Shown: piece by piece, positions 16,394-62,865 of the stretch | Layout: each line of letters begins with the position of its first letter | Numbering within the stretch: position 1 is the first letter of the stretch | NCBI GenBank assembly: GCA_029940695.1 | Contig: JAPYUP010000004.1 | Span: forward strand, 9,998-73,997 | Reading direction: 5' to 3' | Length of the DNA stretch: 64,000 bases | Origin: Candidatus Thalassarchaeaceae archaeon | GTDB taxonomy: Archaea > Thermoplasmatota > Poseidoniia > Poseidoniales > Thalassarchaeaceae | Translations under genes and position numbers: made by a program | The notes under the pieces: generated by a model | Told to the model about the DNA's origin: nothing | What the model saw: the letters and a program-made list of their open reading frames with translations, nothing else | Database searches by the model: none

Positions 16394-19300
16394 TTATGAG
16401 GTAGTGCGGTCGTCGTACCTGATGGGAGAACCACTGTTCCCCCTAATACCGTCCAATAGGTCATCATCGATCTCAAAGAAGTCATTCAACCAATCGCCAT
16501 CTGTGTCCCAATTCATCGGATCGGTACCATCTGCAATGAGATCGCCGTCAATATCTAGGTACCACCATCCATAGGGATTCTCTCCGAGGCCGATATTGGG
16601 CAAGTGATACCTATCTCCTGCCAGTCGGTTGAATGAATCAGTCCAAGCACCATTGACGAAAATGACGTCATTGCTAGTGTTGACATTCTCGTAGTCAACA
16701 TCGTTATCATCGATGACCAAAGCGTATAATGGGTCCTGATTGTTGATTTTGTTCATTCTCAAGTAATTTGAGGACAATGAGCTGGAGCCTGAACACGTAC
16801 CCAACAGAGTCTCCCTCAGTTGCCACCATTCCTCGACGGTGTCCCCGGAGCAGTCGTACAGGGAGGAGGCGCGAACTACGGAAGGGGAAGAGAGCGTGGC
16901 GTTCACGACGGCATAGTATTCCTGGAAGTTGTTGTATGGCTCATATGCGCAGGACGAACCAGAACAGGTCCATTCACCATCCTTGTCTGCGTCCTGAACT
17001 GCGTCGGATGGGTCGGTGGCATCGTGGGTGAACCAAGTCCAACCAAGAACTGGTCGTCCTATGTACCCCTTCGAGAGATCTACGGGTTTCCAGTTGTTTG
17101 GAGTTACTTCCTGCCACTGAACTTCGATCTTATAGAATGAAGACCAATTGTCGTTAGTCTCATTCCATCCACGGTAGTGTTCGTAATAGTCTGGCATCAT
17201 GTCTCCATCTGTATCGTTGTCGAGGGGGTTGGAGCCGTACTTGAATATCTCACGGCCATCAGACAGGCTCATGTCCCTAGCATAATCAATCATGATACCA
17301 TCCTGGAAAACAGGGGACATGACGAGTGAGTCACTATCTGAGTCTGAATCGAGCGGGTTGGTGCCATTGTGGAACTCCATTAGATTGGTGAAGTATAGAG
17401 CGGAGACTCCGTTTGCAATCTGCTGATCAGGTGCGTATGCCAAGAACTCACGATCCAACCACGTCCCTTGCTCAGCGGGATTATCTCCGATCAACCTGTC
17501 GAGCCAACCGTCGGCATCGGGGTCGTAATTCACATCAAGAGGATTTATCGGGTTCAATGACCAGCGAAAGGAGTTAATCGGGAGGACCTCAGCGTAAAGA
17601 GAATAGCAGTATTCCCAACCATCAGGCATACCGTCTCTGTCAGAGTCTCCGTCCGTTGGATCGCTAATTCCAGCGAGGGTTTTGTTGAAGTTGTCCGGGT
17701 CGAACGCATTAATCAAACCCATCTTCTCTGATGAGGATAGGCTCTTCATAGAGAACTGCAGGTACAGTTGCCCCCATGCGGCCTGCATCGACAGCCCGTT
17801 CTCCTCCATTTGGGCATCAACCGCATCTACGCCATAGGACACTATTCCTGTTCCATTTGGAATGCTGCCAATGGCCAACCTCTTTCCATACCATCTGGAG
17901 TCATACTCTGCAAGATTGTCGAAGGACTCGGAATCGGAAATCTCCCCATCCCCATCGCAGTCGTAGGAATCCTCGTCGGTATCGTAGTCGGCATCGGTAT
18001 CAGTTAGGGGATTCATGGTCCAACGATTGCGCTCAAGGTCCCAGTCTGTGAACCAATACTCGTACCCATCGCTCATTCCGTCGCGATCGGTGTCAGCTTC
18101 CTTCGGATCAGTGATTCCCATTATTGAAGCCAGCAGAGGCTTGGCAGGGAATCCGTCCTGCCACTCGACGAACTGCTCCATTGCCAATTCGGCCCTGCCT
18201 TCCTTGCTGAACAGAATCCTGTAAATCCTGTTGACTGAATCGAGGTGATTCAACTGATCGGCCTCTTCCCAGAATAGTGGGGCATCGGGAGGGGAAAGGC
18301 CACCATTGACTGGGCCATTGGCAGTAAGATTCAGTTCGGTCAGATCGCGGATGCCGTCACCGTCTGAGTCGTACGACCCATCGTTTGGAACTAGTGGGTT
18401 GAGAGTCCAGACGCCATCGGTTGAGTTCCACATCGTGAAAATCAACTCGACCCCATCGAGCAATCCATCACCATCCGAATCAGGGTTATTCGGATCGGCC
18501 GTTAATCCTGTGTTGTTTCTCTGCTCGTCTGTCACGAAGGATCCGAACGACAGTGATGACTCAGCACCTATCCAAGGAGTCTCTATGAGTGCCCCGGCTG
18601 CTTCGGAGAGATAAAACTGAGGCACGGAAATGGAGGCATCGGTCTCACTCAAGAGACTATCAATTGCATTGTACTCCTCCCAATTGTTCATCCCGTCGCC
18701 GTCTGTATCGCCGAGCCTGTCATCGCTATTCACGGGATTAAGAGTCCAGTCTTGTTCAAAGAGGCTCCATCGAGCATTGAATACTTCCCATCCATCTGGC
18801 ATCCCGTCCCTGTCGGAATCGGAGCTTAGAGGGTCGGATGTGCCTATGTCGTCAGCAGGCAGACCAGCACTAAGTGTCTCGTAGTAACTCCCAATGTACT
18901 CGCCAAAGGAACCCGGCGCAAGTCCATCCCATGACTCGTGAGGCAAGATTGTGGAGAGATTGCCCGGGTAAGAATTACCTGATGAAGTACCATCCTGCAG
19001 GAGTATTTCCGACTTCAGGTGGTATTCGAGCCAATTGACTAGGGACTCACTCAAATCCATTGTCCCGTCATGATTGGCGTCGTAGCCGTCGCCGTCTGGA
19101 TTGTTCAGGAAATCGGAGCCGTTCATCGGATTAATTCCTGCATTTTCAGATGGCCAGTGGCACGAGTAGCGGGCCTCCCACCCATCTGGAAGAGAGTCGT
19201 GGTCGGAGTCCACAGAATTCGGATCGGTACTGAACCAGCTAGCAGCCGATTCCTGCGATTCGCCGTGGGTCTCGAGGCCCGAGGACTTTACACGGTCGTG

Positions 19301-22120
19301 AAGGCTTGCCCACTCGTATTCGCAAATATTGCTGAGTCCGTCGCCGTCTGCGTCCTGCATGGCATCCGAAGGGTCTCTCGGATCCAAAGTCCAGTTGTTT
19401 CCTCCGGTGTAGACGTCCCCTATCCACCTCCTGTGATGAATCTCCCAACCATCAGGCATCCCATCCCCATCCGTATCTGGGTTAGTGGGGTCAGTAGGTC
19501 CATCGCTACCTCCACCAGAGCCTGAGCCTAGCCATCCACCCAAATGGACCTCCCTGGCGGATTCGCCGGTACCGGAGTCGCATACATAGGCCCCATTTAG
19601 GTAGTGACAATCGAATGTGGTCGGGTCAAGGAACCAACCCCAATACTCCTCCCCATCACTCAATCCATCGCCGTCCGAATCAGAGTGACGTGGATCTGTG
19701 CCGTTGAATCCATCCATCGTGGCTGAAATGAAGCGGAACTCATCCAAGTTGCTCCATTGCCTTGTGTAACCCTCACCGCCGTTCCAAGTAATAGAAACCC
19801 CGTCGGAGTCGGGATCCCTGGGGCTGTCGTAAGGGTCAGTTGGATCCAGCCCGTAAGCGAACTCCCACCCATCTGGCATCCCGTCCAAGTCAGAGTCGTG
19901 AGAATGAGGATTCATGGGTGCGATATTCATGTACCTGCCTGGAGAAACCCCCACGAAGAGCCATTCTTCACCCTCCTTTTCCATAATGGCCATCGAAGTT
20001 ACGAACCCGGGAATCTCAGACTGGTTGAGATACGGACCCAGAATTCCTGAAAATCCCCCTTCGAGGGACCATGTCCCATCCTTTGACCCAACTGCAACCA
20101 CTCCATCTAGTGGCAGGATTGCACGGACATCATTTGCTCCGGATACTAATCCCTCGATGTTCAGCATCCTGTCGTTATCGAACGCTTCTGTGGGTTGAGA
20201 AATTATGAGGTCCATGTTAATCCGATGCAAACCACCACTGGTTCCCATCCATACCTCGCTCTCTCCCGCAGCCCCATCGTCAATCACGAGTGTATTGACC
20301 CTAGCAGTGTTAGTGGAGTCGAAGAGATTCATATTGACGAAATACTCCGCATCCATGATATCGAATACCCACCAAGGCTGGCCCACTGTGTCTAAGCCAT
20401 CTGTGGTATTCCAACCTAGCAATCCCACATCAGTACCTACGAACAGCAACGGACTCCTCCCGGAAATCTCTGCATGTGCAGCTGTGGTCACGGTGGCATT
20501 TGCATCAGAAAGCATTGTGGATAACCCTTCGAGGAGGGTGGGTTCGAAACTCGAGGAGTTGGTTTCAAATCCATCTACTAACTTGGCCTTCCAGACACTA
20601 GAACCACCAAACAGTAGGATTTCGAGATCGTCCGAGTTGGTCTTGAGGGCGATTATCGTCGAGACGGGGCCTATTTCTTGAGTGTTCATCGAATCCATAA
20701 TTGGTAGGCCGTTCTCCATCCTGAGGGTGTGGAACCCGACATTAGTTCCCAATAAGAGGTAGTCCGAGCCACCGATAGAATAGCGACTCATCGTCAGGCC
20801 CTCGATGCCTGACTGGAACTCGAAGCCGGAGGTGGTTCCTCTGAATGGGTCGATTACGGTGATTCCATATCTAGAGCCGACTATCAGGCGGTCCCTTTGT
20901 TGGTCGGAAATCACAGAATGGACGGCGGGGTCGACGAGAGTGATTGCAGTCGAGTGGTCAAAGTTGAGAATCTGCCCCTGGTTCGATGAGACCTTGGTGC
21001 CCCTAAGTCCCGGGCTGACACCCAATGCCCCATCGAAGTCGATGGAATATTCCTCATAGTTGCTGAACGACTCCCCCCAGTGTGCTGTTGATGTAGTGAC
21101 ATCCGGGGTGACGAAGCCGTCCCTGTTGCTATCCCATCCATCTGAGTCACTGTCAAGAATAGAATCGCTGGCGTTACGGGGATCCATGCCGTGGTGGGCC
21201 TCCCAACCATCAGGAATTCCGTCGCCGGGGACTATGAGTTCGACAGCCGTGACCTCATCCCATGAGAAATAGTCAGAATCGCTGAATCTGGGGTCACTGC
21301 CCATCCAGCCGGGGATTGAGGTAGGTCTGGAGTACTGTGTCTGGCAAGCATCCTCAGATAGACTTTGGATTTGACCGTGACACCAAAGGCCATCTCGCTC
21401 CGTGACCCAATCTTGAGGCGAGCCGAAGAGGTATTCCTCAGTGTTTGTGAATCTCTCACCGATGTCAATGATGCCATCGCTGTTGAAGTCGAATCCATCT
21501 CCGCAGCCCCAACTGAAGTCAGCCTCGCAGCGATCAAAGTCCACAGTCAGATCAATAGGATCGAGGGGATCGAAGTATTGGCACTCCCATACCTTCTTCG
21601 AATTCAGTGGATCGTTTGGATTATTCGTGTAAAGGCCACCAACCGTGCACATGTAGACCTCATAGCCGTCGGGAAGGCCATCGCCGTCGGTGTCGGATAT
21701 CCTGGGATCGAGATATTCTCGCAGTCCAGACGCAGTCTCCTCTGGTGCCTTTCCGGTAAGGCTGTTCCTCTCCTCGAAGCATCTGTCGATGGTGTAGGGC
21801 CAACAGTATTCCTGCAGAGCGGTAAGGCCATCCCTGTCGTTGTCGGTGACATTGTCGGTGGCATCTGAGGGATCAAGTCCGCTGATGGTTAACTCTCCAG
21901 AAGTCGTTTCCAACCTGTAGTCGCCCCCGAAGATGACTTCATAGAGATCAGGGATGAGGTCCCCATCCTGATCAGTGACAGGGGACTCAGTGCCTTCTGC
22001 GAGGTTCGGATTGGTCGAAGATACTGGAGACTGTGGGCGGGTTTGAGAGACGAAAGCGAGGCTAGATAGAATCAGGAAGGAAATTAGTAGGGCAGTCTGC
22101 TTGCGCCGCATGTCGCTCAC
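16394..22120 (-). CDS. Giant secreted protein (1908 aa) with many thrombospondin-type-3-like Ca-binding repeats flanking a beta-propeller (Reg_prop-like) region
   Basis: Signal peptide (RRKQTALLISFLILSSLAFVSQ). At least 15 D-x-D-x-D-G-x-x-D-x-x-E modules (DTDGDGLPDGYE, DSDLDGMPDGWE, DTDGDGMPDGWE, DSDRDGMPDGWE...). Propeller-like blades GTNVGFHTL, GTDVGLLGWN, GTSGGLHRIN and GSKDGTWSL at roughly nt 19840-20925. No C-terminal TM segment. The start is GTG at 22120 or ATG at 22111. Confidence 0.85.
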   Translation of the reverse strand: MSDMRRKQTALLISFLILSSLAFVSQTRPQSPVSSTNPNLAEGTESPVTDQDGDLIPDLYEVIFGGDYRLETTSGELTISGLDPSDATDNVTDNDRDGLTALQEYCWPYTIDRCFEERNSLTGKAPEETASGLREYLDPRISDTDGDGLPDGYEVYMCTVGGLYTNNPNDPLNSKKVWECQYFDPLDPIDLTVDFDRCEADFSWGCGDGFDFNSDGIIDIGERFTNTEEYLFGSPQDWVTERDGLWCHGQIQSLSEDACQTQYSRPTSIPGWMGSDPRFSDSDYFSWDEVTAVELIVPGDGIPDGWEAHHGMDPRNASDSILDSDSDGWDSNRDGFVTPDVTTSTAHWGESFSNYEEYSIDFDGALGVSPGLRGTKVSSNQGQILNFDHSTAITLVDPAVHSVISDQQRDRLIVGSRYGITVIDPFRGTTSGFEFQSGIEGLTMSRYSIGGSDYLLLGTNVGFHTLRMENGLPIMDSMNTQEIGPVSTIIALKTNSDDLEILLFGGSSVWKAKLVDGFETNSSSFEPTLLEGLSTMLSDANATVTTAAHAEISGRSPLLFVGTDVGLLGWNTTDGLDTVGQPWWVFDIMDAEYFVNMNLFDSTNTARVNTLVIDDGAAGESEVWMGTSGGLHRINMDLIISQPTEAFDNDRMLNIEGLVSGANDVRAILPLDGVVAVGSKDGTWSLEGGFSGILGPYLNQSEIPGFVTSMAIMEKEGEEWLFVGVSPGRYMNIAPMNPHSHDSDLDGMPDGWEFAYGLDPTDPYDSPRDPDSDGVSITWNGGEGYTRQWSNLDEFRFISATMDGFNGTDPRHSDSDGDGLSDGEEYWGWFLDPTTFDCHYLNGAYVCDSGTGESAREVHLGGWLGSGSGGGSDGPTDPTNPDTDGDGMPDGWEIHHRRWIGDVYTGGNNWTLDPRDPSDAMQDADGDGLSNICEYEWASLHDRVKSSGLETHGESQESAASWFSTDPNSVDSDHDSLPDGWEARYSCHWPSENAGINPMNGSDFLNNPDGDGYDANHDGTMDLSESLVNWLEYHLKSEILLQDGTSSGNSYPGNLSTILPHESWDGLAPGSFGEYIGSYYETLSAGLPADDIGTSDPLSSDSDRDGMPDGWEVFNARWSLFEQDWTLNPVNSDDRLGDTDGDGMNNWEEYNAIDSLLSETDASISVPQFYLSEAAGALIETPWIGAESSLSFGSFVTDEQRNNTGLTADPNNPDSDGDGLLDGVELIFTMWNSTDGVWTLNPLVPNDGSYDSDGDGIRDLTELNLTANGPVNGGLSPPDAPLFWEEADQLNHLDSVNRIYRILFSKEGRAELAMEQFVEWQDGFPAKPLLASIMGITDPKEADTDRDGMSDGYEYWFTDWDLERNRWTMNPLTDTDADYDTDEDSYDCDGDGEISDSESFDNLAEYDSRWYGKRLAIGSIPNGTGIVSYGVDAVDAQMEENGLSMQAAWGQLYLQFSMKSLSSSEKMGLINAFDPDNFNKTLAGISDPTDGDSDRDGMPDGWEYCYSLYAEVLPINSFRWSLNPINPLDVNYDPDADGWLDRLIGDNPAEQGTWLDREFLAYAPDQQIANGVSALYFTNLMEFHNGTNPLDSDSDSDSLVMSPVFQDGIMIDYARDMSLSDGREIFKYGSNPLDNDTDGDMMPDYYEHYRGWNETNDNWSSFYKIEVQWQEVTPNNWKPVDLSKGYIGRPVLGWTWFTHDATDPSDAVQDADKDGEWTCSGSSCAYEPYNNFQEYYAVVNATLSSPSVVRASSLYDCSGDTVEEWWQLRETLLGTCSGSSSLSSNYLRMNKINNQDPLYALVIDDNDVDYENVNTSNDVIFVNGAWTDSFNRLAGDRYHLPNIGLGENPYGWWYLDIDGDLIADGTDPMNWDTDGDWLNDFFEIDDDLLDGIRGNSGSPIRYDDRTTS

Positions 22121-22155
22121 TCAGTGTATTTTTCCCTACTTGAGGGATTTATCAT

Positions 22156-22257
22156 GGTGATGGAGCGCCGTTCGGACATAGAGGCTTAGATTGGGGTGAT
22201 GGCTAATCACCAAGACCTTGGAAAAGCGTGTGATTGAGGCATGATTAAGGAGTGATT
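22156..22257. promoter_or_regulatory. Cluster of TGAT-core repeats in the divergent promoter region
   Basis: GGTGATGG occurs at 22156-22163 and 22195-22202. A hairpin ggtgat-ggcta-atcacc spans 22195-22211. Three (G/A)TGATT copies at 22230, 22241 and 22252 are spaced exactly 11 bp apart, just upstream of the MBL gene start. Confidence 0.35.
22160..22178 (-). promoter_or_regulatory. Conserved 19-nt upstream element, copy 1 (sense strand TGTCCGAACGGCGCTCCAT)
   Basis: 18 of 19 nt are identical to 62847-62865. It begins 40 nt upstream of the giant gene's start codon at 22120. An ATAAAT TATA-like box (22147-22152) lies between the element and the start. Confidence 0.5.
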
Positions 22258-22268
22258 CAAAGGGTACT

Positions 22269-23096
22269 GTGGACCGGGGTCGCGATAACATGAGCATCGA
22301 GATAACTCATTTGGGTTCGGGCAGCAGGGGCAATGCCACACTGTTAAGCTCTGGAGGTTCGAAGGCCTTGGTTGATTGCGGATTCAGCCTCATACAAACA
22401 GAGAAGAGGCTTGCGTCGATTGGAGTCGAACCGAAGTCAATTGACACGATTCTTGTGACGCATCACCACAAGGACCACTCGTGCTCTGCTCTCAGGGCCG
22501 CGAGGGCGTGGGACGCCAATCTCCACTGCAATCTAGAGACTGCCTTGAGAATGGGGTGGCAGCCCATGGATGACTGTAGGACCTTCGGAAATCTCGAGAG
22601 GGTAGAGTGCGTCCAAGGATTCAGTCTATTAACAGTCCCAGTTCCCCATGACGATGCCGATAACGTCGCTGTAATCGCCAGTGATGGAAAAGGTGGGCGG
22701 GCGGCCATAGTGACTGACCTCGGAGAGGCCACTGCTGAATTGGTGAATCACCTTAGTGGATGTAACCACATCTCAATAGAAGCGAATTACGATCATTCTA
22801 GGCTTGCCCGAGGGCCATATCCCGATTCCCTCAAACGAAGGATTTCGGGACGGGGTGGGCACCTTTCAAATTCTCAAACTGCCGAACTATTGGGAAACCT
22901 GTGTCACTCAGGATTGGAAAGCATCGTCCTCTGTCACCTTTCTGAGAAAAACAACGCGCCCCACTTGGCCGAGAGCGAGGTGCTGATGGCCATAAGCGAT
23001 GATTTCTCTGGTGACATCTCAGTCTCAAAACAGCGTGGACCGGAGTTCAGTCACTGGACAGGGCAAGCGGAGCCACGGAGATTCGCGGCAGCTTGA
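22269..23096 (+). CDS. MBL-fold metallo-hydrolase (COG1235, YycJ/PhnP-like)
   Basis: ILVTHHHKDHS (HxHxDH), EANYD...RGPYPDSLKRRISGRGGHLSN and VLCHLSEKNN. The start is GTG at 22269 or ATG at 22290 (MSIEITHLGSGSRGN). Confidence 0.75.
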   Translation: MDRGRDNMSIEITHLGSGSRGNATLLSSGGSKALVDCGFSLIQTEKRLASIGVEPKSIDTILVTHHHKDHSCSALRAARAWDANLHCNLETALRMGWQPMDDCRTFGNLERVECVQGFSLLTVPVPHDDADNVAVIASDGKGGRAAIVTDLGEATAELVNHLSGCNHISIEANYDHSRLARGPYPDSLKRRISGRGGHLSNSQTAELLGNLCHSGLESIVLCHLSEKNNAPHLAESEVLMAISDDFSGDISVSKQRGPEFSHWTGQAEPRRFAAA

Positions 23097-25658
23097 CTAC
23101 TTTCCCATTACCGCCCGATGCACTGAGTTCTGGACCTCCCTCATCCTATCCACAGCCCCCAGTTCCCTGAAAAGCGAGAGCGAGCGTTGGAGATATTGCA
23201 TTCGCTGTGAGCGATCGGGCTCGACCGCTCCCAGACGGGCTAGCAGCTCACCCTGTAGCATTCTGAAATCGTTCCCCTCGGCCACGGCTAGGCCGTTGAG
23301 ATAGTGCTCACCGGCCTCCTCCCCTCTACCAGCATCTACCAACACTTGTCCTAGCAGCATCTCGACCTCCACCGCGCTTCTTGGGTCATTGAGGGTGGAG
23401 AGTGTTTCCAAAGCCCCCGAGTAGTGATGGAGTGCAAGTTCGTTGTCAGAAATCTTAGCATAGAATCTACCTAGGACTGCTCTGGAGCGCGCGTGCAGGA
23501 AATCCTGATTGATGTCTTTGGTGTTTTCAAAGGCCGCAAGAGCGTGCTCCCTAGCCCTGTCTAATTCTCCCATCTCAATGAAGGCAGAAGCTAGCCTGAT
23601 TCTGGCATCATTGAGTTCGGGATCATCCTCAAGTTTCAACAGATCCTCGACATTGCTATAGACCTCGAGTGCGCGTCTGGCATCCCTCCTTCTTCTGAAG
23701 ATGTGCCCCATGTTGTTGTATGAACGCGCCGCTCCTACCGCATCGCGAATGTCTTTGTGGGTTTGGATCTGGAGGGCCTTGCGGTGAAGTTCAAGCGCGT
23801 CATCCATTGCCCCTCTTTTCACGGCAATGTCAGCTCTAGCAGAGAAGAGGCGGGCTAGTTCAGGACTGATTTTCCTCCTTCCGACATGCCTAGCAGCAGC
23901 GTCGTATTCGATCTCTGCTTCGTCCCATCTCCCCTGAATAGAGAGGATGTCTCCCTTTAGTTCCCTTATCAGTCCCCAACTCTTTGCGTCAAAGTCGTCC
24001 CTATCGAGGGTGTTCAATATTGAGAGGAGTTCCGTATGGCCGGCACTCACTAGGCTATGGCCCTCTGAAAGAAGGACTTCAGCTAGACCCTCATCGTCTC
24101 CGGTATGCCTAAGGTGATGAATAAACTCAATTCTATCGGCCGCGTTGTCGTTCTTATCCCGGTACCAACTTACGGCAGTCGAATGCAGTTCCTTCCTAAG
24201 TTCGTCGTCCATCGCACGCATCAAGAACTCCCTAACGAGGTCGTGGACGTCGTAGTTTTCGGCGTCAGACTGGCGGGCTAGGCCTTTCTCGACAAGTTCG
24301 TCGAGGAGGTCAGTACCCCCTTCTACTCGCTTGACCGCCTGTATTGGTACAGGTTCGCGAAAAACAGCAATTGCGCCGAGAAGGCGTTTTTCTGCACCAG
24401 AGAGGCGGCTGAAAATCTCCTGTTCCACGAAAGCCTCTAGAGTGGCGTGGAAGGTATCAGCAACATTACCTCTGTTGATGAGCTCGAGAATGAGGGGGTG
24501 CCCTCTGGAAAGATCATAAATATTGGAGAATTGTTCCTGATTCAATTTTGGCATCGCTGTCAAAATCTGCTTACTGGAATCCTCATCTAACCCCTGAAGA
24601 GGCATCACTAAAGTGACAATATTACCAGTACTGTCAGACTCGGGAACGACCATTCTGAATGAGCGGGAGAACATTACTAGGCCCACTTCCCTCAGATTGG
24701 AAATCCTCAAAGTGAGCTCACGAAGAATTGTGAACAGGGTCTCGTCACCCACCTTGTGGAGGTCGTCTATCACTATCAAGGAAGGAGATTCGGAGAGGCC
24801 GGATTCAATCAGGTTCACTGCCAAGGTAGGCTGAGGGACAGGAGTGGAGTCCAGATAGTCGGAGAGGTCGTTGTGACCTATCGCCGACAGCCACTCAGCA
24901 CATGCCTCGAGAAAGGCACGTGACCCCTCCCAATCCTGGCACCTGTGGTACAGGAGGTTCCTACGATGAGTGAATCTGTCCAATATTTTTGTCGATAGGG
25001 CGGTCTTCCCGATTCCCGCAATCCCAGGAAGTAGGATTGTGCCGGATTTGGCCTCGAGTAGATCCGCCATCACATCGAGTTCCTTCGTCCTTCCATAGAA
25101 TCGGCGGGTTCTTGGTAGGTCGTTGAGATAGGAAATGAGTTGTTTTTCTATGTGCTTGGATAGGTCCCTCTCAATGAGATCCGATGTGAGCCCCGAGAGG
25201 TCTATGGTGCCCGAGTCATCCATGTAGCGGAGCAGGTCGACATGGCGAAGGGGTAAGTCTGTCTCCTCCAATGCTTCAGAGAGAGAAGTTGATTCGGAGT
25301 GACCGTCAGGGTGTATAATCCTGACGAGCTGCTCGGATACCTTAGTCCACACCTCATCGGCTACATTTGCTCCATCTTCGGTTAGGAAGTATGCCTTACG
25401 CTTCCTAGAGACGCCAGTGACGTGGGCTTGACGCTCGATGAGATGACCGGACTCCTTCATTCCAGAGATTGCCCTAGGGACATTAGACCTAGCTATCGCC
25501 ACGGCATTTGCGATTCCCATCTGTGAAAGTGCGAATGGAACTTCGACCTTGTCACCGTAGTCCATATAGTCGCGAAGATGCAGAAAAATTCGCTCTTGGA
25601 CCCCTGGACGAGTTGTAGACATCGTGGCCATGGTTTCGCAGCCCACATCTCCACTCAA
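23097..25658 (-). CDS. STAND-type P-loop NTPase with an N-terminal winged-helix DNA-binding domain and C-terminal TPR repeats
   Basis: The N-terminus LSQMGIANAVAIARSNVPRAISGMKESGHLIERQ is wHTH-like. Walker A is LLPGIAGIGKTALS and Walker B is LIVIDDLHKV. The C-terminal ~300 aa are TPR-like helical repeats (ARSYNNMGHIFRRRRDARRALEVY...). The start is ambiguous (TTG 25658, ATG 25631 or ATG 25622). Confidence 0.75.
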   Translation of the reverse strand: MSGDVGCETMATMSTTRPGVQERIFLHLRDYMDYGDKVEVPFALSQMGIANAVAIARSNVPRAISGMKESGHLIERQAHVTGVSRKRKAYFLTEDGANVADEVWTKVSEQLVRIIHPDGHSESTSLSEALEETDLPLRHVDLLRYMDDSGTIDLSGLTSDLIERDLSKHIEKQLISYLNDLPRTRRFYGRTKELDVMADLLEAKSGTILLPGIAGIGKTALSTKILDRFTHRRNLLYHRCQDWEGSRAFLEACAEWLSAIGHNDLSDYLDSTPVPQPTLAVNLIESGLSESPSLIVIDDLHKVGDETLFTILRELTLRISNLREVGLVMFSRSFRMVVPESDSTGNIVTLVMPLQGLDEDSSKQILTAMPKLNQEQFSNIYDLSRGHPLILELINRGNVADTFHATLEAFVEQEIFSRLSGAEKRLLGAIAVFREPVPIQAVKRVEGGTDLLDELVEKGLARQSDAENYDVHDLVREFLMRAMDDELRKELHSTAVSWYRDKNDNAADRIEFIHHLRHTGDDEGLAEVLLSEGHSLVSAGHTELLSILNTLDRDDFDAKSWGLIRELKGDILSIQGRWDEAEIEYDAAARHVGRRKISPELARLFSARADIAVKRGAMDDALELHRKALQIQTHKDIRDAVGAARSYNNMGHIFRRRRDARRALEVYSNVEDLLKLEDDPELNDARIRLASAFIEMGELDRAREHALAAFENTKDINQDFLHARSRAVLGRFYAKISDNELALHHYSGALETLSTLNDPRSAVEVEMLLGQVLVDAGRGEEAGEHYLNGLAVAEGNDFRMLQGELLARLGAVEPDRSQRMQYLQRSLSLFRELGAVDRMREVQNSVHRAVMGK

Positions 25659-53347: not shown

Positions 53348-53863
53348 ATGGGTTCATTCGGGTCCGTTCGATGGATGGGCGTAAGCATGCCGTGGTCAAG
53401 AATCGAGGTCGAGGTCGAGGGCGATGAGCAAGAGGGTGGCGGTTTGGATTCCCTCAAGATTGGATTAGACGTAGATGTACAGCAGATGCACGAGTTGTTC
53501 CTTGGGGGGCTGCCACACCTCTCCGAGGTACAAGGCCGCCATGAGGAGATTTTAGACGGAGTTTCCAGCACGATAGGTGACGCGAAATCCCTCGCTAGGG
53601 CTGCGGTTCCAATAGGGGATTTCCTAGCAGAGATCGGAGGGGAGTGGTCAGGCTCGGAGGTCAGAATACCCCTTCCCTCTTCCTTCCCAGAGAGAGTAGT
53701 CGTCGAGACGCTCTTGGAAGAGGGGAAGCAAATAGTGCGCCTCATCTCACCAGAGAGGTTCGGCGGGTTGCTCAGAACGTTCAGGCTTCCCGTGGGAGAG
53801 GTCATAATGGGGGCTAACTGGGAAGGTGGTGTCCTTACCATGAAGACGAGTCAGTCAGGCTAG
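53348..53863 (+). CDS. Hypothetical protein with a weak Hsp20/alpha-crystallin-like C-terminus
   Basis: It starts 4 nt after the xpd stop. Its C-terminal LLRTFRLPVGEVIMGANWEGGVLTM resembles the sHSP F-R-L-P...A....GVL-I strand pattern. The rest is unassigned. Confidence 0.35.
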   Translation: MGSFGSVRWMGVSMPWSRIEVEVEGDEQEGGGLDSLKIGLDVDVQQMHELFLGGLPHLSEVQGRHEEILDGVSSTIGDAKSLARAAVPIGDFLAEIGGEWSGSEVRIPLPSSFPERVVVETLLEEGKQIVRLISPERFGGLLRTFRLPVGEVIMGANWEGGVLTMKTSQSG

Positions 53864-56800
53864 GCCTCGGCCTCGATGGGAGGGGTGTTTCTTTGGGGGA
53901 TCTCCTGCAATTCTTCTATTTCCTGTAGAACCGAAGCTAGGGCAATCTGGGCATTCTCTCTGTGCAAGCCCCCGAGCACGTGGCTTGAGTACCGTGCCTC
54001 TTCGAATATCCGGTCGAGTGCTACCAGCGAAGTTTCGTTGATAGGCAACGCGTTTCGAATCGCAATTTCGAACTCCCTGACAGTCTCGAAGTCCCTGCGG
54101 AGGAAGCCACGTCGCAACAGGACAGCGCACAGTCTCGCGTAGCAATTGAAGATGGCTTTCCTGAATTCGTCTCCCGAGGCGAGCATATCCGCAGTGTAAC
54201 TGAAGACACCGGCGAGTTCCTTGATTGCGGCCTTGCGACGACGAGTTAGCACTGCGGCAACCGAGACCAGTGCGGCAGCGACAACCAAAATGAAGACGAA
54301 TCCTAGCATCGCCGTGCCGAAGAGGGAGTCGGAAGCGTCTTCCTCGTACTCAATTAGGATGCCGCCACTTGGCAGATAGGCTAGGCTTCGGGCATCGATG
54401 AAGTCCGAGTCCGAGTCCAGCATAACACTGAGTCTGCCCCATGAGGAGGTGTCGGAGAGGGGGGGCAGAGGTGAGAGTGACTTGAACTCGTACTCGAAGA
54501 CCCCATCTGCGTCGGTGAGTCTGGAAATGAAGAAGTGGGCAGTAGACCCATTCATCAGCATGGCTGTCATGGAAAGTCCCTCCACGGGAGAACCTGTGTC
54601 TCTGGCAGTGGCATTGACGGTTCCCCGTATCACCCTCTGTCCAGTGGATAGCTCTATGCTGGACAAAGTGAAGTCCACTTCAATCATCACCATTATCTCG
54701 ATGTCCGTCGAGGCGCCGTTGAGGAATCTCGACTGATCAGATTCAATCTTGATGGTCACGATGTTCTTTCCGGGCGGTAGGAACTCCTGGGCCTTTGCCC
54801 TCATCTGGAAGTTCATAGTTCCTGGATTGTCCCACGGCCCCCCTTGGAGGGGGAGGTTGATTTCACCCCATGATAGGCTAATAGTCAGGTTCTCGAAAAT
54901 GCTTGAGTCTCCACCAATCTCTCTGACGAAGCCTTGAATGAGAATCGAGTGGGAAGTGTTACCCCTAATGATTTTCGAGGTTATGGGTTGAACCTCAATC
55001 AATATGTCAGAGAGGACGAATGCAGTCAAGTTAGCCTCAGTGGCGAGATAGAGAAACTCGCCCTCATACGAGAAACTCACATTGTGGCCCCCTCTGTAAA
55101 TGGAATATCCCATACTGTGACTGTAGTTGAACAAGCCGCCCAACTCGGTAGTTACAGTCACAATGACAAATCCATCGAGAAGGATGCTGACCTCCCTGCC
55201 ATCTAACCCCATCTCGAAACCAGTGTCACCCTCATAGAGGCGCCCCGAGAAGTTCCATTCCGAACCCCTAGTGACTGAAGACTCCTCCACTTGAACGCTG
55301 ATTATTGTGTGGTAGGAGATCGTGAGGATAGTTTCCACGTGCCCCTGTCTGTGGTAGCCCTGGGCCGGAGCAACGGCGTATAGTGTGTGGTTCCCAATAT
55401 CGAGGGAATCGGGAATGATCCATGGAAGTGCCCAATGGCCATTGTCACCAGTACTGGTGATTCCAATTAGGATGCCATCGACGAATATCTCAATGGTATG
55501 GTTACCCAGCCAGCCGTCCTCCAAGTTGTCCTTGGCTGTTCCACGAAGGATAACTGAGTTGCCCACCGCAGCGGGAGAAGGTTCCTCTATGGAGGTGTAC
55601 ACAGGCCCATAGACGGTAATCACAGTGGATGAGTTGGAGGGCAAGATGAATGACTCGCCGGAGAATTTGATTTCTATAACCCTAGACCCAAGGGGCATAT
55701 CTGGTGGTACTGAAATATAGACGCTGAACGAACCGTTGTCACCGACCTTCAGACCGGTCATGAACTGCCCGTTCATCGAGACTTCGATGTCCCTGTTCGG
55801 CAGACCCCTCCCAATGCCGTCAGTCAAGAGTCCCTGCACGAGCACTAGATCAGAACGATCGACGTCCCCCGGAGGCGTCGAGATGATGACCTGAGACGTC
55901 TGTGTGACATTGAACTCGGTGCTATGGGACGAGGGGAGGTAGAACTCAGGATTCAATGAGTCTCCCTGTCCCATGGGATCGACCCAAGTGAAGCCTCCGA
56001 GGAAGTTCACACCCACCTGATGGGCTCCGAACTCCATGCCGAGAGGGAGATCGTAGGTAATCATCCAATGCCCCTTGGTGGCATTGGATATCGTGGTGTA
56101 AGTCGGTCCGACGTCGATGCCGTCAATCGTGAGATGGATGACGCCCCCAGTGTGGGCCCCATCCTCAGCCAACGGCTGGCCCCTCTCGTCGAGAAGGGTC
56201 CCGTTGAAAGTTACCGTGTTTCCAACTATAGATGGTTGAGTCACCCCTGTAATTCTAAGTTCAGTCGGAGCGAGTACAATTACACGGGTCCAGACCTCGT
56301 CTCCGAGAAGTCCGGTAGTCCCGTTGACGCCGGTGAAAATAGCAGTCACAGTCATGGGTCCTGGGCTCCTGTCGGGATCGACGAGAATTTCCGCGGATGC
56401 CTCCCCATCGAGATTGGTCATGCCATTCCACACTGGTGCGCCATCAATCTGTATTGACAGTTGTGCGGATGGAACTGGGTTCTCGGTATTATCGATTATG
56501 GATACATTGACGTCTATCATGTCCCCCCTAAGCGTCCTGCTGTCAGGATCGAGATCAGTGGGATAGACAATGGAGAGCAAGGAATACCCTCTGCTGTCGA
56601 AGAGGGCTAGGTCGGTCGCCGTAGTGTAGTAGCTGACTTCGGGCGTAAATAGTACGATGATGCCATGCGAACCACGGGGGAACGAGAGGTCCAACCTGAG
56701 GAGCGCGCTCCAGTTTCCATCCTGATTAAAAGCGATCTGGGAGACCATGAAGATATCTGACTCACCGTCGATAGAGAACGTCAGAGTGGGATTGAGCAGG

Positions 56801-59800
56801 TTGCCCGATCTGTCTGTGAGAGCACTCCCATTACTCGAAACCAAGGATCCTGTAACGTTGAAGAACTCGCCCGCGAGTGGGTTGTCGATTATCGGATTGA
56901 TGTTCATGTTAGCCGACGATCTTACCGTAATTGTGCTGATTGTCCTGATGGTTGCGTGTAGGTCCTCTGAGCCATTGAAGAACAAAGTGATGTTAACAAC
57001 ACCCAAAGGGTGGTTGTGTGGAATGTCAAACTCGAAGGCTATGCTGCCGTCCCCGGAAGTGATTTCCTGCTCTAGCCAAGTATCATGGAATTTAGCTGAA
57101 ACTGAGTATCCGGACAGGCCTTCGTCATTATCGCTGAACTCGACAAGACGTGAAGTGATAGTAGCTGTCTCCCCCCTGTTGATGACGGTGTTAAGGAAGG
57201 GCGTCGTGCCAACGAACTGAGGAATCCCCCTCACGAGAATCGAGGCGTCACCTGTTCCGGTCAGGTAGAATGGGGTTGTCCCATTCAGGACGCTGACCAC
57301 GACGGTGCGCATTCCCTTCGTCACACCATCACCCAGAGTGTCCGTGGGCACGGAGACGTTGAAACTGCCATTGCTATCTGTCGTGTGGTTCTCGATGAGT
57401 ATCTCATCCGCTTGGTCGAGGAAGAAAATCTCAAGTCCCACTGGTCCCTGAATGGTCCTATTCGAATCAACTGAGTCGATAACGGTACCTGCAATAGTGA
57501 AGTATTGAAGGGCTGTGACTTCGTTTGGAATGCTACTAATCTCAACGAAGCTCGGGACTTGGACCGTGAGGTTGACTATGCTATGATTGGCAAGCCAACG
57601 CCCTGCATTTTCCGAGCTTAAGTTGTCAGAGAGGTCATCAGGAGCATGAATTCTGATATCGTAGAATCCAGGAGCGATCGAGGAGGGAATAATTGAGCTG
57701 AATACAGCCACGCCCCCCGAATCCGTGGTAGCAAAATCGAGTACCTGCTGGAGAGGCCCGCCCCAGTCGAAGTAGAGGTCGAGCCCCACGTCCCCTATGG
57801 ACTGACTATCATCCTCCACATCAGTGACGGTTGCGTTGACGACTAGAGCGTCCCCTGCGACCAGAATGACTGCATTGGGTTCGGTTGTGACTACGAACTC
57901 AGACTGAATTCCGGCTAGGATCTCGGTGCCGTCAGAGACGGCGTAGTAGTGCCCGCCGAACGGGGGGTTGACAGAGAAGTCTAGCTTTATCCTAATTGTG
58001 TAGACTCCTGAGGTGACGCCACTCGGCATCTCGAAAGATAGGTTGTAGCCGCCGGTTGTGGTATTCACCCACCCGGTGGCAAGAATGTAGATGTCAGGCG
58101 GAGGGGGGCCAAACGGAGTCGGGGGCAGGCTAGAGGGGACCTCGAGTCGCATGGTAACTGAGGAATTGTTTCCGGTGACGACCGAGTTGAGTACCATGTC
58201 CCTAGCGAATCCAGTGACCCAGTTTGTGCCGCCTCTGGGAGTCCAATCCAAGTTGATGGAGGCGCTAACATTCGCCAGGCCCCGAATACGTATCGTCTCC
58301 TGAGACGAAGCGGGTTGGAACCAGGTTGATCCAGAGTAGTTCAGGAACCAATCATAGTCGCCGGGCTCCATGTCCCACGCTGGCGACCACACGACGACGA
58401 GTCTCGGTGAGCTGGGGTCGGTCTCGTTCCAGACGTCAATCCCATCAAAGTCGAGGTTGTAGGCCCCCTCAAACGAGGCGAAGGAATTGCCGGTGTGATC
58501 GGTGAGGATGACTTCGACCTCTGCTTGGATTCCACGAGGTTTGGGGGACAAGGTGTAGTTGAACTCAACGAAGCTCCTAATTCCGTACTCTGAGAACTGT
58601 ACCTGGTCATTGGCAAATAGACCCTCGGCGTCGAACTGAATCCTTACTTCCACTGGCCCTGCCGGGATAGGCACCTCGGCTGCGGAGAAGCTCCAATTGA
58701 TAGCGAAGTCACCGGATAAGGGGGGGTCCCAAGATGTGTCGTTCAGGTACCATGTGAACAAGGTGGTGAATGGCCCGGCGATGTCCAATCTCCTCATTTC
58801 GAGAATTAGTGTGCCGTTCAGAGTGGATGGGTTCTCGCCCCTACTCAGAACTGTGCCGTTGAGGAAGATCGGGTTGTCGATTTCTAGGATGGAGTTGTTG
58901 GAACCTTGAGCCTCGAGCGTGACGGACAGGTTTGGGGACAGAGTGATGTTGAACATCACGGCAAAGGCACTGGGAAACGCATGATAGGATGGGGGCGTGG
59001 CGTTGTTCAGGTCGTCCTCGTGCCAGCCTAGGAAACTGATTGAGGCATTGATTAATCCCAGTGGCTCTGATTCAGCGATTGGAACTGAGAACTCATAGTA
59101 CCCCCCTCCGCCGACACCACTAGTCAGGTTGACTTCCCCGTCGGTCACGGTGACGTAGTTGAGGACTACTTGGAGATCGTCGACGAGGGACGGGTCCAAT
59201 GACGGATTACTAGACCAAGACAATTGGCCTAACACCGTGGTGTTGACTCCGATTCCCAGCATTGGCTCCTCTATCGGAGGTGGTTCGGAAAGGGACAGTA
59301 CGACGTCATCGGTGACGTTGATGTGCCAGCGGAAAGTGACTCCTTGCGTGCCCACATAGCCTTGCTCTATGGTTTGGATAACCAAAGAACCGTAGCCGGG
59401 ACGGATGACCTCGGAAGGAAGCCCTGTGAGGTTGAAACTGCCGTTCTCGCCAGTTGTGGTGTTCGCCACGAGGTGTCTGACGACAGCGGAGCGCCCCGGA
59501 ACGTCGTCGGCATCATCGGGCTCAACGAGGTACATGAGCAGAGTTACGTTTTCAACGGATGTCGAGTTGTCGGCATATTTCAGAGTGCCCTCCACCCAGA
59601 TCGTCTCCGATTTGGAGATGTTTCTCTCAATCGCACTCGGACCCCAAGTCTCGTTGACGACCTCGACCAGAGACATTGGTGGGCAGGCTTCGAAGGGAAT
59701 CCAACCGAGGTCTAGTTCGCCTTGGTTCTGATTGGTCTGCAGGTGAACTTCCACCCAGCGGGAGAAGTCCTTGCCATAGACCATGAAGGACTCGCCGTTC

Positions 59801-62800
59801 CACGTCCCTCCTGAGAATCCTGTAACCTTTCTTGCCGGGATGCCGGCCAGCCTCACCATTACTGCGAAGACAGATGCGAACTCGTCGCAACTTCCCTCGT
59901 GAGAAGAGTTGAGCAACCAATGAGAGATGTCGCTGTCAGTTCCTAGCCCGTCCACCCTCTTAGAGCCATCATGATTCCTGAGGAATGTGATAGTGTCGTT
60001 TCCGTTGGTCAGGAAGTCCTGTATCGCAGCCACTTTGTCCCATGCAGACAGAGCCCCGGACTGGTTCAGGACAGTCTGTGTCAGGTTGTTGACGTATGCA
60101 CTGTCCTGATCCAAAAAAGCAGGGGGAAGGTCGAGTGCGTAGGTGCTTCCGGTGAAGGCTGTGGAGTTCTGCTTGACCTCAGCTGAGAGGATGACCTCGG
60201 GGGCTGAGACGTAGAGGGCCTCGATTATTGACGAGTCGATGATGATGTCCCTCGTGTAGTTCGAAAAGTTGAGTCCCGCCATGATATCCGACCAACTGGA
60301 GAAGTTCTGAACGTTGTAGGGCTGTATCAGTTCCTCGCCGGGACCGATGTACCCTGCCTCGTCGAAGATGAGCTCCCATAGGAGCTGGGTGCTGTGATTC
60401 CAGAAGGCCTGATCTGCGACTCCTTGGTCAGTCGACCATTCTGGGAAAACTTGTGTAAAAAAGCCTGCTAGGCTGGTGTTGACCCCCCAGGATACCCCAG
60501 TATAGGAATCGTAAGTGTGCCACCTCCAATAGTGAGTTACTGTTGGATCCATTCCGGTCGAGTAGTTGGTGGCAGTGAACATCAGTGCGTTCTCAATCAG
60601 GTCGTCCATCGGGTCAAATGGGTCCCCTGGTGATCCTATGCAACCCGACACCCAGAACTCGGGTGGGCATTCTTCGCCGTCAGGAACGCCCCCTCCATCG
60701 GAGTCGGGGTCCAGCCAGTCAGTGCCGATTTCGTCCTCTATGGTATTCGGTATTCCGTCCCCGTCGCTGTCGAGCGGGTTAATGTCGTCATCCGGGTTGT
60801 TTTGGGGGTTAGTACCGTCGATGTACTCCTGGCCATCATCTACCCCCCCGTTGTCAGAATCAGCCATGTTCCACAGGGTCAACCAAGAGTCGAAGGTAAG
60901 GTTACCACTCATGATTCCGAAAATCATGTCGCAGCCTGTCGTGTTCTCGAAGTAGTTGTTGAGACCGTCGTCATCCGTATCCAATAGGTTGTGGCATGGC
61001 TCCAAGGGATCAGTTTGGTTCTGAATCTCAGACAGGTCATCCACTCCATCGCCGTCGGAGTCTGTCATGTTGATGAAGGAATGATACCCCCAAGTCCCCA
61101 TTTGTTCCTCCCAATCCGCTAGGCCGTCACCATCCAAGTCGGGGTAGTCGTCGTCGCAGTTAGGGTCGTTGGTTGCGCCGGCTGTGGCGTTCCAGCACCA
61201 TGACCCATTGGTGAAGACGACGGTGGATGCGTCGTTTGGCTTCGCTGTGTTCACGCCTCTCAGCCAATTGACTTCGATGGATGTGAATCCAAAGGGGGTC
61301 CTCTCCCCACTGAAGGACTCATAGAATGCCATTGGAGCGCCCGACTGTCGCCAATCAACCGGGTTTGGGTTGAGTCCCAAAGTTGTGTTCAGAGTCAGGA
61401 TGTTCTGGTTTTCGTCCCAGTCAGTGATTGTGAAGACGAGTTCGACGAAGGATGTGCAAGGGTCCGTATTTCGGAAGAAGGAAAGCTCGTCGCCGTCGTT
61501 CATTCCGCCCCCATCTGAGTCTGAGACGTTCCAAAAGGAGCAACTCATGTTCTCCTGCCAATTCTGGACGCCGTCGCCGTCGAAATCTCCCTCATCATTG
61601 ACTCTCGTTGGATCTGTCTCGCCTTCGTCGATTATCCCGTTTCCGTTGAGATCCTCCTCGCCATCGTCTAGGTAGTCACCATCCGTGTTGTTGTCACGGG
61701 GGTCTGAGCCTTGTGGTGGGTTGTTGCCGTAGGAGCCGTTGAACTCGACCCCATCCGGAATGCCGTCGGAATCCGTGTCCGCAGAGGTCGGGTCGGTCAA
61801 GAGGATGAGTGCCTCGAAGGAGTCATTGAGGCCGTCGCCATCGGTATCGTTGTTCTGTGGGTCAGTCTGCGTTATCCCGTCGACCTCGGCTGTGAATATC
61901 TGACAGCCCCCTGGACCGAGGGATAGTATGGGGTTGCATGGAGACTCAGTGGCAGTCATGTTGGTCGGTCCAGGCCGGAAGTACTGCGTGGGTGGGAAGG
62001 TCGAACCGTTCCTCGTGCCCCAAGTCGGGTTGACGTACTCGTAGATGTTGACGAGGCCGTCTCCATCCGGGTCTCCGTAGGTACCATCTTGGTTGGAGTT
62101 AGAGGTCGGGTCCAAGCCATTAGCGGCCTCCCAACCGTCAGGCATACCATCACCGTCGGTGTCCCATCCGTTGGGGTCCTCGTCTATTAGGCCGTCACCA
62201 TCGTCGTCATCGGAGCTGCAGTCCGCATCACCATCGTTGTCCCCGTCGTTGGAATCCACCATGCCGTCCTTATCATTGTCGAAGGTGTCGGTGCAGATGT
62301 TGCCCATTGGATCCTCGTCAGCCCCATCTGAACCCGATCCCTGCATCAACTGCATGGCGCTTTCCTCGTCCCAGTTACTCACCGGGACGGTCCCATTCCA
62401 CCACACCCCGTTGTCGAGTACATTGGGAGTGGATGGCTCGTCCCACCCAACAGGGATACCGAAGAGATATTCGTTGAGGTTTGTGAGTGCATCCGAGTCA
62501 GGATCGCCGGTAGAGCCGTTGTCCCCAGTCGATGAGAGGGGGTCGAGCCCATACTGCCACTCCCAACCATCGGGAAGGCCGTCATTGTCGGAATCCCAGT
62601 CCTGAGGTTGGGTGTTGATGTAGAATTCGATTCCATAGGGCAGCCCGTCACCGTCTTGGTCCGTGGTTGCCTTAGCCTCCCATATTCCGAATTGCATCGC
62701 TGCGTGGCTAGACAGCAGCAGGAAGGCTGTGAAGACGAGCGCAGAGCGCTTCCTCTCCCTTGGACCCAAAGCTTCGTAACTTCCAATTACGAACAGCACG

Positions 62801-62808: not shown

Positions 62809-62846
62809 TCCCGTTTTGTTGGCGCTACCAACGGGTCTTAAGACGA

Positions 62847-62865
62847 ATGGAGCGTCGTTCGGACA
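62847..62865 (-). promoter_or_regulatory. Conserved 19-nt upstream element, copy 2 (sense strand TGTCCGAACGACGCTCCAT)
   Basis: 18 of 19 nt are identical to 22160-22178. It begins 39 nt upstream of the ATG at 62808. A CTTAAG TATA-like stretch lies between the element and the start. Confidence 0.5.

Follow-up and report, generated by a model that had tools for sequence, protein, structure and literature searches.

A 19-bp box conserved upstream of two giant-gene promoters in Thalassarchaeaceae is a putative transcription-factor site

In the surface ocean, Marine Group II ranks with the most abundant archaea, and no member of the group has been cultured. In a stretch of 64,000 nucleotides from a Candidatus Thalassarchaeaceae archaeon of Marine Group IIb (hereafter the window) the same short sequence stands ahead of two very large genes that lie far apart, and we asked whether this pair is a coincidence, the trace of a duplication, or a site that acts on both genes. 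Read on the minus strand, the box is TGTCCGAACGRCGCTCCAT. It occurs twice in the window, at 22160-22178 (copy A, minus-strand sequence TGTCCGAACGGCGCTCCAT) and at 62847-62865 (copy B, minus-strand sequence TGTCCGAACGACGCTCCAT). On the plus strand the two copies read ATGGAGCGCCGTTCGGACA and ATGGAGCGTCGTTCGGACA and are one base apart; an earlier note on this DNA had drawn attention to the pair, and its sequences, positions and single difference proved exact. The copies are direct repeats 40.7 kb apart. We found no third copy in the 64-kb window at up to three mismatches, and 100 shuffles of the sequence gave no match at all.

The earlier note had also judged a chance match very unlikely. This holds for the setting in which the copies are found, as the number of matches of at least 18 of 19 positions expected by arithmetic is about 4e-6 when the comparison is restricted to short intergenic regions. 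It does not hold for an all-against-all comparison over the whole window, where about 0.9 such matches are expected. Within the window, then, the match owes its significance solely to the short intergenic regions that hold both copies; copy B is just 11 nt away from the stop codon of the gene upstream. In our reading the question of chance is settled by the comparative data presented below and not by the window match alone.

Both copies lie upstream of giant minus-strand open reading frames, as had been noted, with mechanical start codons at 22120 (GTG) and 62808 (ATG). Giant gene A (16394..22111, minus strand) encodes a 1905-aa secreted protein made up of TSP3-like calcium-binding repeats. 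Its true start is almost certainly the ATG at 22111 (MRRKQTALL...) and not the GTG at 22120, judging from the N-terminus MRRKQTALL..LSSLAFVSQTRPQ, which is conserved in the orthologues that share this promoter class. An SD-like GAGTGAG at 22116-22122 precedes this ATG. Giant gene B (53860..62808, minus strand) encodes a protein of 2982 aa with TSP3 repeats, a transglutaminase core, a Big_3_5 domain and a C-terminal DUF4129, and its ATG at 62808 is retained as coding sequence in the closest relatives (loci L074 and L105). The two N-termini had been described as paralogous. A similarity does exist; it is weak (27% identity over 135 aa), its E value of 0.001 is that of a single comparison, and it consists mostly of the signal peptide and TSP3-like DxDxDG repeats.

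The neighbours of the two copies differ. Copy A lies in an intergenic region that gene A has in common with a divergent gene for a metallo-beta-lactamase-fold (MBL) protein (22290..23096, plus strand), which is followed by a minus-strand gene (23097..25631) for an 844-aa STAND protein with a predicted wHTH and with NOD and TPR parts, discussed below as a candidate reader of the box. Upstream of copy B is the 3' part of a membrane protein gene (62878..64000, minus strand) that leaves the window at its end. The protein has NPCBM_assoc/FixG_C-like Ig domains, a C-terminal TM segment and an acidic tail (..DDEDVELV*), and is 978 aa long in the close relative L105. The window further encodes CDP-archaeol synthase, an archaeal-type PheRS beta subunit, a class-Ic GluRS, a DUF5591 archaeosine-TGT-like protein, XPD, PurD, glutamate dehydrogenase and DnaJ; the genes for PurD, CDP-archaeol synthase, glutamate dehydrogenase and XPD lie between copies A and B. 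This gene content identifies the DNA as part of an archaeal chromosome. Neither tRNA genes nor Rfam matches were found in the window.

Each copy is followed directly by a spacer and a TATA-like box. In the gene A promoter this block (CACCATGATAAATC, 22146..22159, minus strand) contains the hexamer ATAAAT at 22147-22152, and in the gene B promoter (TCGTCTTAAGACCC, 62833..62846, minus strand) it contains CTTAAG at 62837-62842, both of which had been recognised previously. The gap from the box to the hexamer is 7 nt for gene A and 4 nt for gene B. In the wider promoter classes described below, the consensus of this block is CA.CaTcATAAgtc for gene A and TC.TCTTAAGacCC for gene B. It had been claimed that both boxes begin at the same offset of 39-40 nt from the start codon. 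This equality is lost with the revised start of gene A, as the distance from box to ATG is 48 nt for gene A (ATG 22111) and 38 nt for gene B; what is fixed is the distance to the TATA-like element.

We then looked for the box in other genomes with an exact-match scan (query TGTCCGAACGNCGCTCCAT) against one genome per prokaryotic species, which returned at least 119 loci. At least 115 of these are Marine Group II archaeal loci, from 95 assemblies, and every family-level name among the matches listed is Thalassarchaeaceae or Thalassarchaeum (MGIIb). The remaining four listed matches are bacterial and have no common context; about 17 such matches are expected by chance (arithmetic). Three matches on viral contigs have no promoter context and come from unrelated GC backgrounds, and we read them as chance and not as a viral link. 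Searches with the proteins likewise gave close MGIIb relatives only, and extending the search from the most distant homologue found for the upstream gene did not lead out of the family.

The box is not scattered through these genomes. Among the matches listed, none of the 95 assemblies has more than two exact copies, and none has two before the same kind of gene. Copies before both gene A and gene B are present in 19 assemblies, and one assembly has a copy before gene A and another before a gene for a PKD-domain protein. Additional copies with one or two mismatches were absent from 0.94 Mb of related loci, which argues against a dispersed repeat or MITE. At all archaeal loci among the matches listed the box has the same orientation, with a TATA-like element about 5-7 nt downstream. 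The scan of related genomes, which the earlier note had suggested, thus places the box before orthologues of gene A and gene B and before one giant PKD gene; random scattering, which that note had named as a sign against function, is not seen, with at most two exact copies per assembly among the matches listed and no degenerate copy in the 0.94 Mb.

Four promoter contexts can be distinguished, with the TATA-like element at +5 to +12 relative to the box and the start codon 37-58 nt downstream. The first is that of the TSP3 giant gene, in which the box is followed by CAYCRTSATAART and, 46-58 nt from the box, by ATG CGN CGN AAG CAG AC. This is the start of the gene A orthologues (MRRKQTALL...LSSLAFVSQTRPQ), which are about 1905 aa long where complete. 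Among the matches listed, the MBL gene is divergent in 68 of the 68 loci where it was found, and the conserved match to the MBL protein starts 86-172 nt from the box. The second context is that of the transglutaminase giant gene and is arranged as at copy B: the stop codon of the membrane protein gene is followed after 4-16 nt by the box and TCNTCTTAAG, with 37-49 nt to the start of the gene B orthologue. The membrane protein here ends in ..D(D/E)(D/E)IELV*, and the orthologues of gene B encode a transglutaminase/DUF4129 protein of about 3000 aa. This arrangement was found in 44 genome loci among the matches listed, and in 42 loci among the matches listed the membrane protein gene lies directly upstream of the box. 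The third context belongs to the gene B family in other genera, where a palindrome (GACCCTCC-N4-GGAGGGTC) precedes the box and TTGCCTTAATA follows it. The fourth was seen at a single locus (L081) of one deep-water lineage, in which the box and TGACTATTAAAG stand before the gene for another giant secreted protein, one that has PKD domains.

Since the genome scan demanded an exact match it overstates conservation, and we therefore sampled both promoters through their neighbouring proteins, independently of the box. For gene A we used the MBL protein as query against metagenome contigs and took the best 80 loci (65-95% protein identity), of which 79 had enough upstream DNA. The box was at the expected place in all 79, with no mismatch in 61, one in 16, two in one and three in one. 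For gene B we turned to the membrane protein encoded upstream and took contigs for ten of its homologues, the least similar at 38% protein identity. Here the box was present in ten of ten with 0-3 mismatches, 4-46 nt past the stop codon, and the same TATA-like block came next. Absence of the motif ahead of orthologous giant genes had been named as a second sign against function; the box is instead present at 79 of 79 gene A loci and in 10 of 10 gene B homologues.

The substitutions found in these samples are not spread evenly over the box. The degenerate consensus is NGTMYGAAC-DNY-GCTCCAT, in which GT (positions 2-3), GAAC (6-9) and GCTCCA (13-18) are invariant. The variable positions are alike in both promoter families, namely position 1 (T to C or G), position 4 (C to A), position 5 (C to T), position 10 (G to T or A), position 11 (any base) and position 12 (C to T). 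Position 19 changes from T to C in just 2 of the 79 gene A loci. GAAC-N3-GCTC forms a pseudo-dyad within the box, with the free position 11 at its centre. As the same tolerance profile is found at promoters that are non-homologous and otherwise unalignable, we propose that both are read by one common reader.

A profile of mean pairwise identity over 75 non-redundant gene A promoters sets the limits of the conserved unit. Identity in the three 20-nt blocks upstream of the box is 29-30%, the random level. It rises to 98.7% in the box without position 11 (position 11 itself is at 68%), is 81% in the 14 nt after the box, which hold the spacer and TATA-like box, and drops to 41% in the 20 nt that follow this block. 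Conservation thus covers a unit of about 33 nt, made up of the box and the TATA-like box, with a hard 5' edge.

Taken together, the box shows a fixed distance and orientation with respect to the TATA-like element, conservation above its flanks and restriction to a few promoters, features that characterise an upstream activating sequence (UAS) or an operator. We conclude that it is probably a DNA-level cis-regulatory element, a putative transcription-factor site abutting the BRE/TATA region of the two giant-gene promoters. The proposal that the two genes have in common a regulatory site just upstream of BRE/TATA is therefore borne out by position, conservation and restriction. In all four contexts the start codon lies 30-49 nt past the centre of the TATA-like element and a Shine-Dalgarno of the GGTGA/GAGG type precedes it. 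The distance from TATA box to transcription start is usually about 25 nt in archaea. With a transcription start about 25 nt past the TATA-like box, the box would lie at about -35 to -53, its 3' end would reach the BRE position, and the resulting leader would be 5-25 nt long and carry the Shine-Dalgarno-like GGTGA/GAGG. A factor bound there would be expected to touch or neighbour TFB and TBP and in this way to set the rate at which the pre-initiation complex forms, and the box may act as an upstream activating sequence that recruits TFB/TBP. We favour activation over repression because the site is upstream of the TATA-like box, not over it or the start site, and because the BRE position is pyrimidine-rich.

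Sites wholly upstream of BRE/TATA are typical of archaeal activators such as Ptr2, GvpE, TFB-RF1 and TrmBL1 in its activating mode. The Ptr2 sites of Methanocaldococcus, the GvpE-UAS of the haloarchaeal gvp genes, the TFB-RF1 site of Pyrococcus and, where it lies upstream of the promoter, the TrmBL1 TGM all abut BRE/TATA. Like these UASs, the box is short and specific, stands just upstream of BRE/TATA in fixed orientation and spacing, and is common to few promoters, one of them in a divergent intergenic region as in gvp. Its sequence is unrelated to theirs, and unlike them it marks only two promoters per genome among the matches listed and is far more tightly conserved across the family, with GT, GAAC and GCTCCA constant in the roughly 200 sites examined. 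So high a degree of conservation is unusual among ordinary factor sites, and an extra constraint could lie behind it. A counter-point to the activator-site reading is that each promoter has a single site, with no obvious repeat or clean palindrome.

The architecture of the box also resembles SurR-type sites (GTT-N3-AAC) and other sites of archaeal winged-helix dimers, in that two invariant 4-bp blocks enclose three tolerant bases (GAAC-DNY-GCTC). It differs from them in the order and sequence of the half-sites and in a dyad that is imperfect in a conserved way, as the additional invariant GT (2-3) and CA (17-18) and the near-invariant position 19 make the box asymmetric.

Which protein might read the box? 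Among genes whose synteny with a promoter carrying the box is conserved, we found just one for a putative DNA-binding protein, that of the wHTH-NOD-TPR STAND protein about 1 kb from copy A, which the earlier note had already named among candidate regulators. Its synteny and conservation make it the most plausible, if tentative, candidate for the reader. It is syntenic with gene A in 54 loci among the matches listed, and lies 5-6.6 kb distant in one genus; a gene for a 1443-aa beta-helix protein is also syntenic near gene A across the family. The pair of STAND and MBL genes was considered as a defence system and set aside, since PADLOC gave no meaningful matches and since both genes are syntenic and belong to the core.

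The STAND protein has AAA_16/AAA_22 domains followed by TPR_12 and TPR_MalT. An AlphaFold (AF2) model places a winged helix (H-H-H-beta-beta, residues 11-83) before the NOD and TPR parts, with pLDDT values of 54-89 per 10 residues; sequence matches of this wHTH region (residues ~11-83) to Pfam and PDB families are weak (HTH_Crp_2, E = 0.0014; PadR, E = 0.09; SlyA, E = 0.55), and some homologues have been named PadR, MarR or MalT by JGI. Residues 8-90 are 81-93% identical, as against about 70% elsewhere, so that the wHTH is the most conserved part of the protein. The top Foldseek match is 6mfv, PH0952 of Pyrococcus horikoshii (E = 1.2e-12), and the MalT model gives E = 3e-12, which is below its curated cut-off. 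Orthologues form a narrow group, with one further 50% cluster at 54% identity and the next at no more than 32%. This narrowness fits a box seen, among the matches listed, only in Thalassarchaeaceae.

In MalT of E. coli the LuxR-type domain is C-terminal, and the protein binds several short asymmetric boxes arranged in arrays. The STAND protein has in common with MalT and PH0952 the NOD, arm and TPR architecture, and with PH0952 an N-terminal predicted winged-helix DNA-binding domain; unlike the MalT boxes, there is here one 19-bp site per promoter. We found no DNA target for any PH0952-type protein in the literature consulted, and the family is only a predicted transcription factor in its structural paper (PMC6468293). 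If the STAND protein is the reader, it would tie the co-expression of the giant surface proteins to a signal sensed by its TPR part and to oligomerisation that depends on ATP. That the box is the operator of this PH0952-type STAND protein, and so part of a ligand- and ATP-gated switch co-expressing giant calcium-binding adhesin-like proteins in the most abundant planktonic archaea of the ocean, is possible but doubtful.

A different use of the same position would be as the operator of a repressor, which when bound would overlap the BRE position and keep TFB/TBP from being recruited until released by a signal. The geometry is equally compatible with such occlusion, since the 3' end of the box is about 5-7 nt from the TATA-like box and reaches the BRE position, and the evidence from conservation and from the set of target genes applies to a repressor just as well. 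We nevertheless regard repression as unlikely, as the pyrimidine-rich BRE position suggests a promoter in need of help and as the TATA box or the start site is the more frequent target of characterised archaeal repressors.

The unbroken conservation from the box to the TATA-like box, over about 33 nt, together with the strict orientation and a spacing fixed within 2 nt, would also be expected if the box extended the core promoter and were read by the basal machinery itself, for example by a specialised TFB/TBP paralogue. The BRE is about 6-8 bp long, whereas the box extends about 15 bp further upstream, past the usual footprint of TFB. A promoter class with two members per genome would moreover be odd for a basal factor, and we consider this explanation improbable.

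The preferred reading, a factor site in the DNA, was also weighed against an element that acts in the RNA. The box occurs only before genes that are 5.7-9 kb long where complete, and always in one orientation, which would suit a signal in the leader of very long transcripts that begin at a promoter further upstream or arise by read-through; it might load a processivity factor in the manner of ops, or serve processing or translation. The ops/JUMPStart element of long bacterial operons, at which RfaH is loaded, is transcribed and acts on paused polymerase; like the box, it is near-invariant, short, orientation-specific and found only before very long genes for surface structures. In the gene B context the upstream stop codon is followed by no T-tract in the 4-16 nt before the box, so that transcription probably continues through from the upstream gene. 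For gene A, there is an AT-rich island about 45 nt upstream of the box; were it a promoter, as is conceivable, the box would fall within the 5' leader of gene A. The position of this island is slightly sharper with respect to the MBL gene, which gives a weak preference for its being the divergent MBL promoter instead, and at the PKD locus the 60 nt upstream contain no AT-rich element. Unlike ops, the box is by its geometry upstream of the TATA-like box, and this downstream element and the canonical distances from TATA to start codon in the four contexts put it outside the main transcript. No Rfam match was obtained, and RNAalifold on 75 sequences gave 0.0 kcal/mol for the sense and -1.7 kcal/mol for the antisense strand, with no consensus structure. 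A function in the RNA is accordingly very unlikely.

The earlier note had pointed out that both copies can be read on the plus strand as the beginning of a divergent micro-ORF, ATG-GAG-CGN-CGT-TCG-GAC (MERRSD...), and the sole freely variable position of the box does coincide with the wobble base of the CGN arginine codon. We reject this idea almost entirely. In the 79 motif-independent loci the wobble bases of the other four codons (GAG, CGT, TCG and GAC) are constant; changes away from position 11 are non-synonymous (D to Y, R to S) or fall in the start codon or on the first base past codon 6; the length of the frame lies anywhere between 7 and more than 90 codons, and no conservation extends past codon 6; and in the gene B context it would run antisense into the upstream gene.

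The direct repetition 40.7 kb apart and the roughly 0.9 matches expected window-wide would allow a chance pair, a recent duplication remnant or the att sites or terminal repeats of a 40-kb mobile island, a set of explanations that we consider as good as eliminated, since both copies are conserved at orthologous promoters throughout the family while their flanks are randomised, and since a contig of a relative (PBMR01000015.1, loci L008 and L105) carries both copies 40 kb apart in the same arrangement as the window. An att site or island boundary was also set aside on the grounds that housekeeping genes lie between the copies, no tRNA is present and the sites are conserved in relatives.

Searches of the literature for the box sequence and the topic found nothing about it. 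On the comparative evidence, the box appears to be a previously undescribed cis-regulatory element defining a putative regulon of two, rarely three, genes for giant extracellular proteins in Thalassarchaeaceae. Genes of the thrombospondin type occur widely in the order and have been linked to adhesion, and their regulation is not mentioned (Rinke et al., PMC6461757).

To our knowledge, essentially nothing is known about gene regulation in Marine Group II. The box offers a concrete, testable piece of the regulatory wiring of these archaea, consisting of a site, its target genes and a candidate regulator. If the STAND protein is the reader, a DNA target would be assigned to the PH0952 family, and this would be, as far as we know, the first for a widespread and uncharacterised class of archaeal signal-sensing ATPase regulators. 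The gated co-expression of the giant proteins, if true, may then represent a possible switch between free-living and particle-attached states.

We found a 15-bp palindrome, GACGGC-N3-GCCGTC, in 43 of 149 promoters of gene A, which encodes the secreted TSP3-repeat protein. The palindrome (examples are the related loci L001, L003, L011, L019 and L037) has its 3' limit exactly 20 nt upstream of the 19-bp box, and in all 43 promoters the arms are invariant while the centre varies. It is absent at copy A, the window's own box upstream of gene A (22160-22178). GACGGC-N3-GCCGTC looks like a second protein-binding site, lineage-specific and lying between the two divergent promoters.

Palindromes were also observed in the promoters of gene B, the transglutaminase/DUF4129 protein gene. 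In one group of genera the palindrome GACCCTCC-N4-GGAGGGTC ends 6 nt before the box (L006, L029, L033, L034, L038, L046, L059, L063, L076, L100, L104, L216 and L217). The first codons of gene B in this group (ATG TCT ACG AAC GTA TCT CCA T) resemble a degenerate second copy of the box, with 15 of 19 positions matching in L216. Many gene B promoters carry a different, short palindrome, placed after the TATA-like box and before the start codon (L005, L039, L043, L049, L053, L054, L068, L084, L087, L088, L103, L117, L207, L212 and L214), and here the arms show compensating changes, reading either CTGCC-GTA-GGCAG or CCGCC-GTA-GGCGG. Since this palindrome is located about where the start of transcription is expected, it may serve as a second operator or form a hairpin in the leader.

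The box was also found in front of a gene for a giant secreted protein of a third type, which has PKD domains. At this locus (L081, CAUZSY010000106.1) an exact box together with TATTAAAG lies upstream of the gene. The locus comes from one deep-water Thalassarchaeaceae MAG, and in the same MAG the box also precedes the gene A orthologue (L052).

Upstream of copy B, the ORF listed at 62878-63960 (-) is only the 3' portion of a gene that extends past the end of the window (62878-64000). In L105 the orthologue encodes a protein of 978 aa that has a signal/TM segment at its N-terminus, followed by Ig-like domains and, on the C-terminal side, a TM segment and an acidic tail.

A run of cell-surface genes on one strand ends with the STAND gene, which encodes the candidate reader of the box. 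At its head is a 3166-aa ORF (31340-40840, minus strand), which is a giant AglB fusion because it combines an STT3/AglB oligosaccharyltransferase domain at residues 394-795 with a CarboxypepD_reg domain. This is followed on the same strand by an S8 subtilase (30057-31295), a 1443-aa beta-helix protein (25683-30014) and then the STAND gene.

The divergent MBL-fold protein (22290-23096, plus strand) is one of the core partners in synteny with the STAND gene, and it is no more than weakly similar to hydrolases of the RNase Z, beta-CASP and anti-Pycsar Apyc1 types. On the MBL-gene side of the intergenic region (22179-22289 in the window, and the orthologous intergenic regions) we found a conserved element in the gene's 5' region, GGATTnnTTCAAAGG when read in the direction of the MBL gene, at most about 45 nt before the ATG. 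The intergenic region between gene A and the MBL gene also holds a separate AT-rich island, at a distance of about 45 nt from the box. GGATTnnTTCAAAGG may be the promoter of the MBL gene, and if so, a leaderless or short-leader mRNA would be implied.
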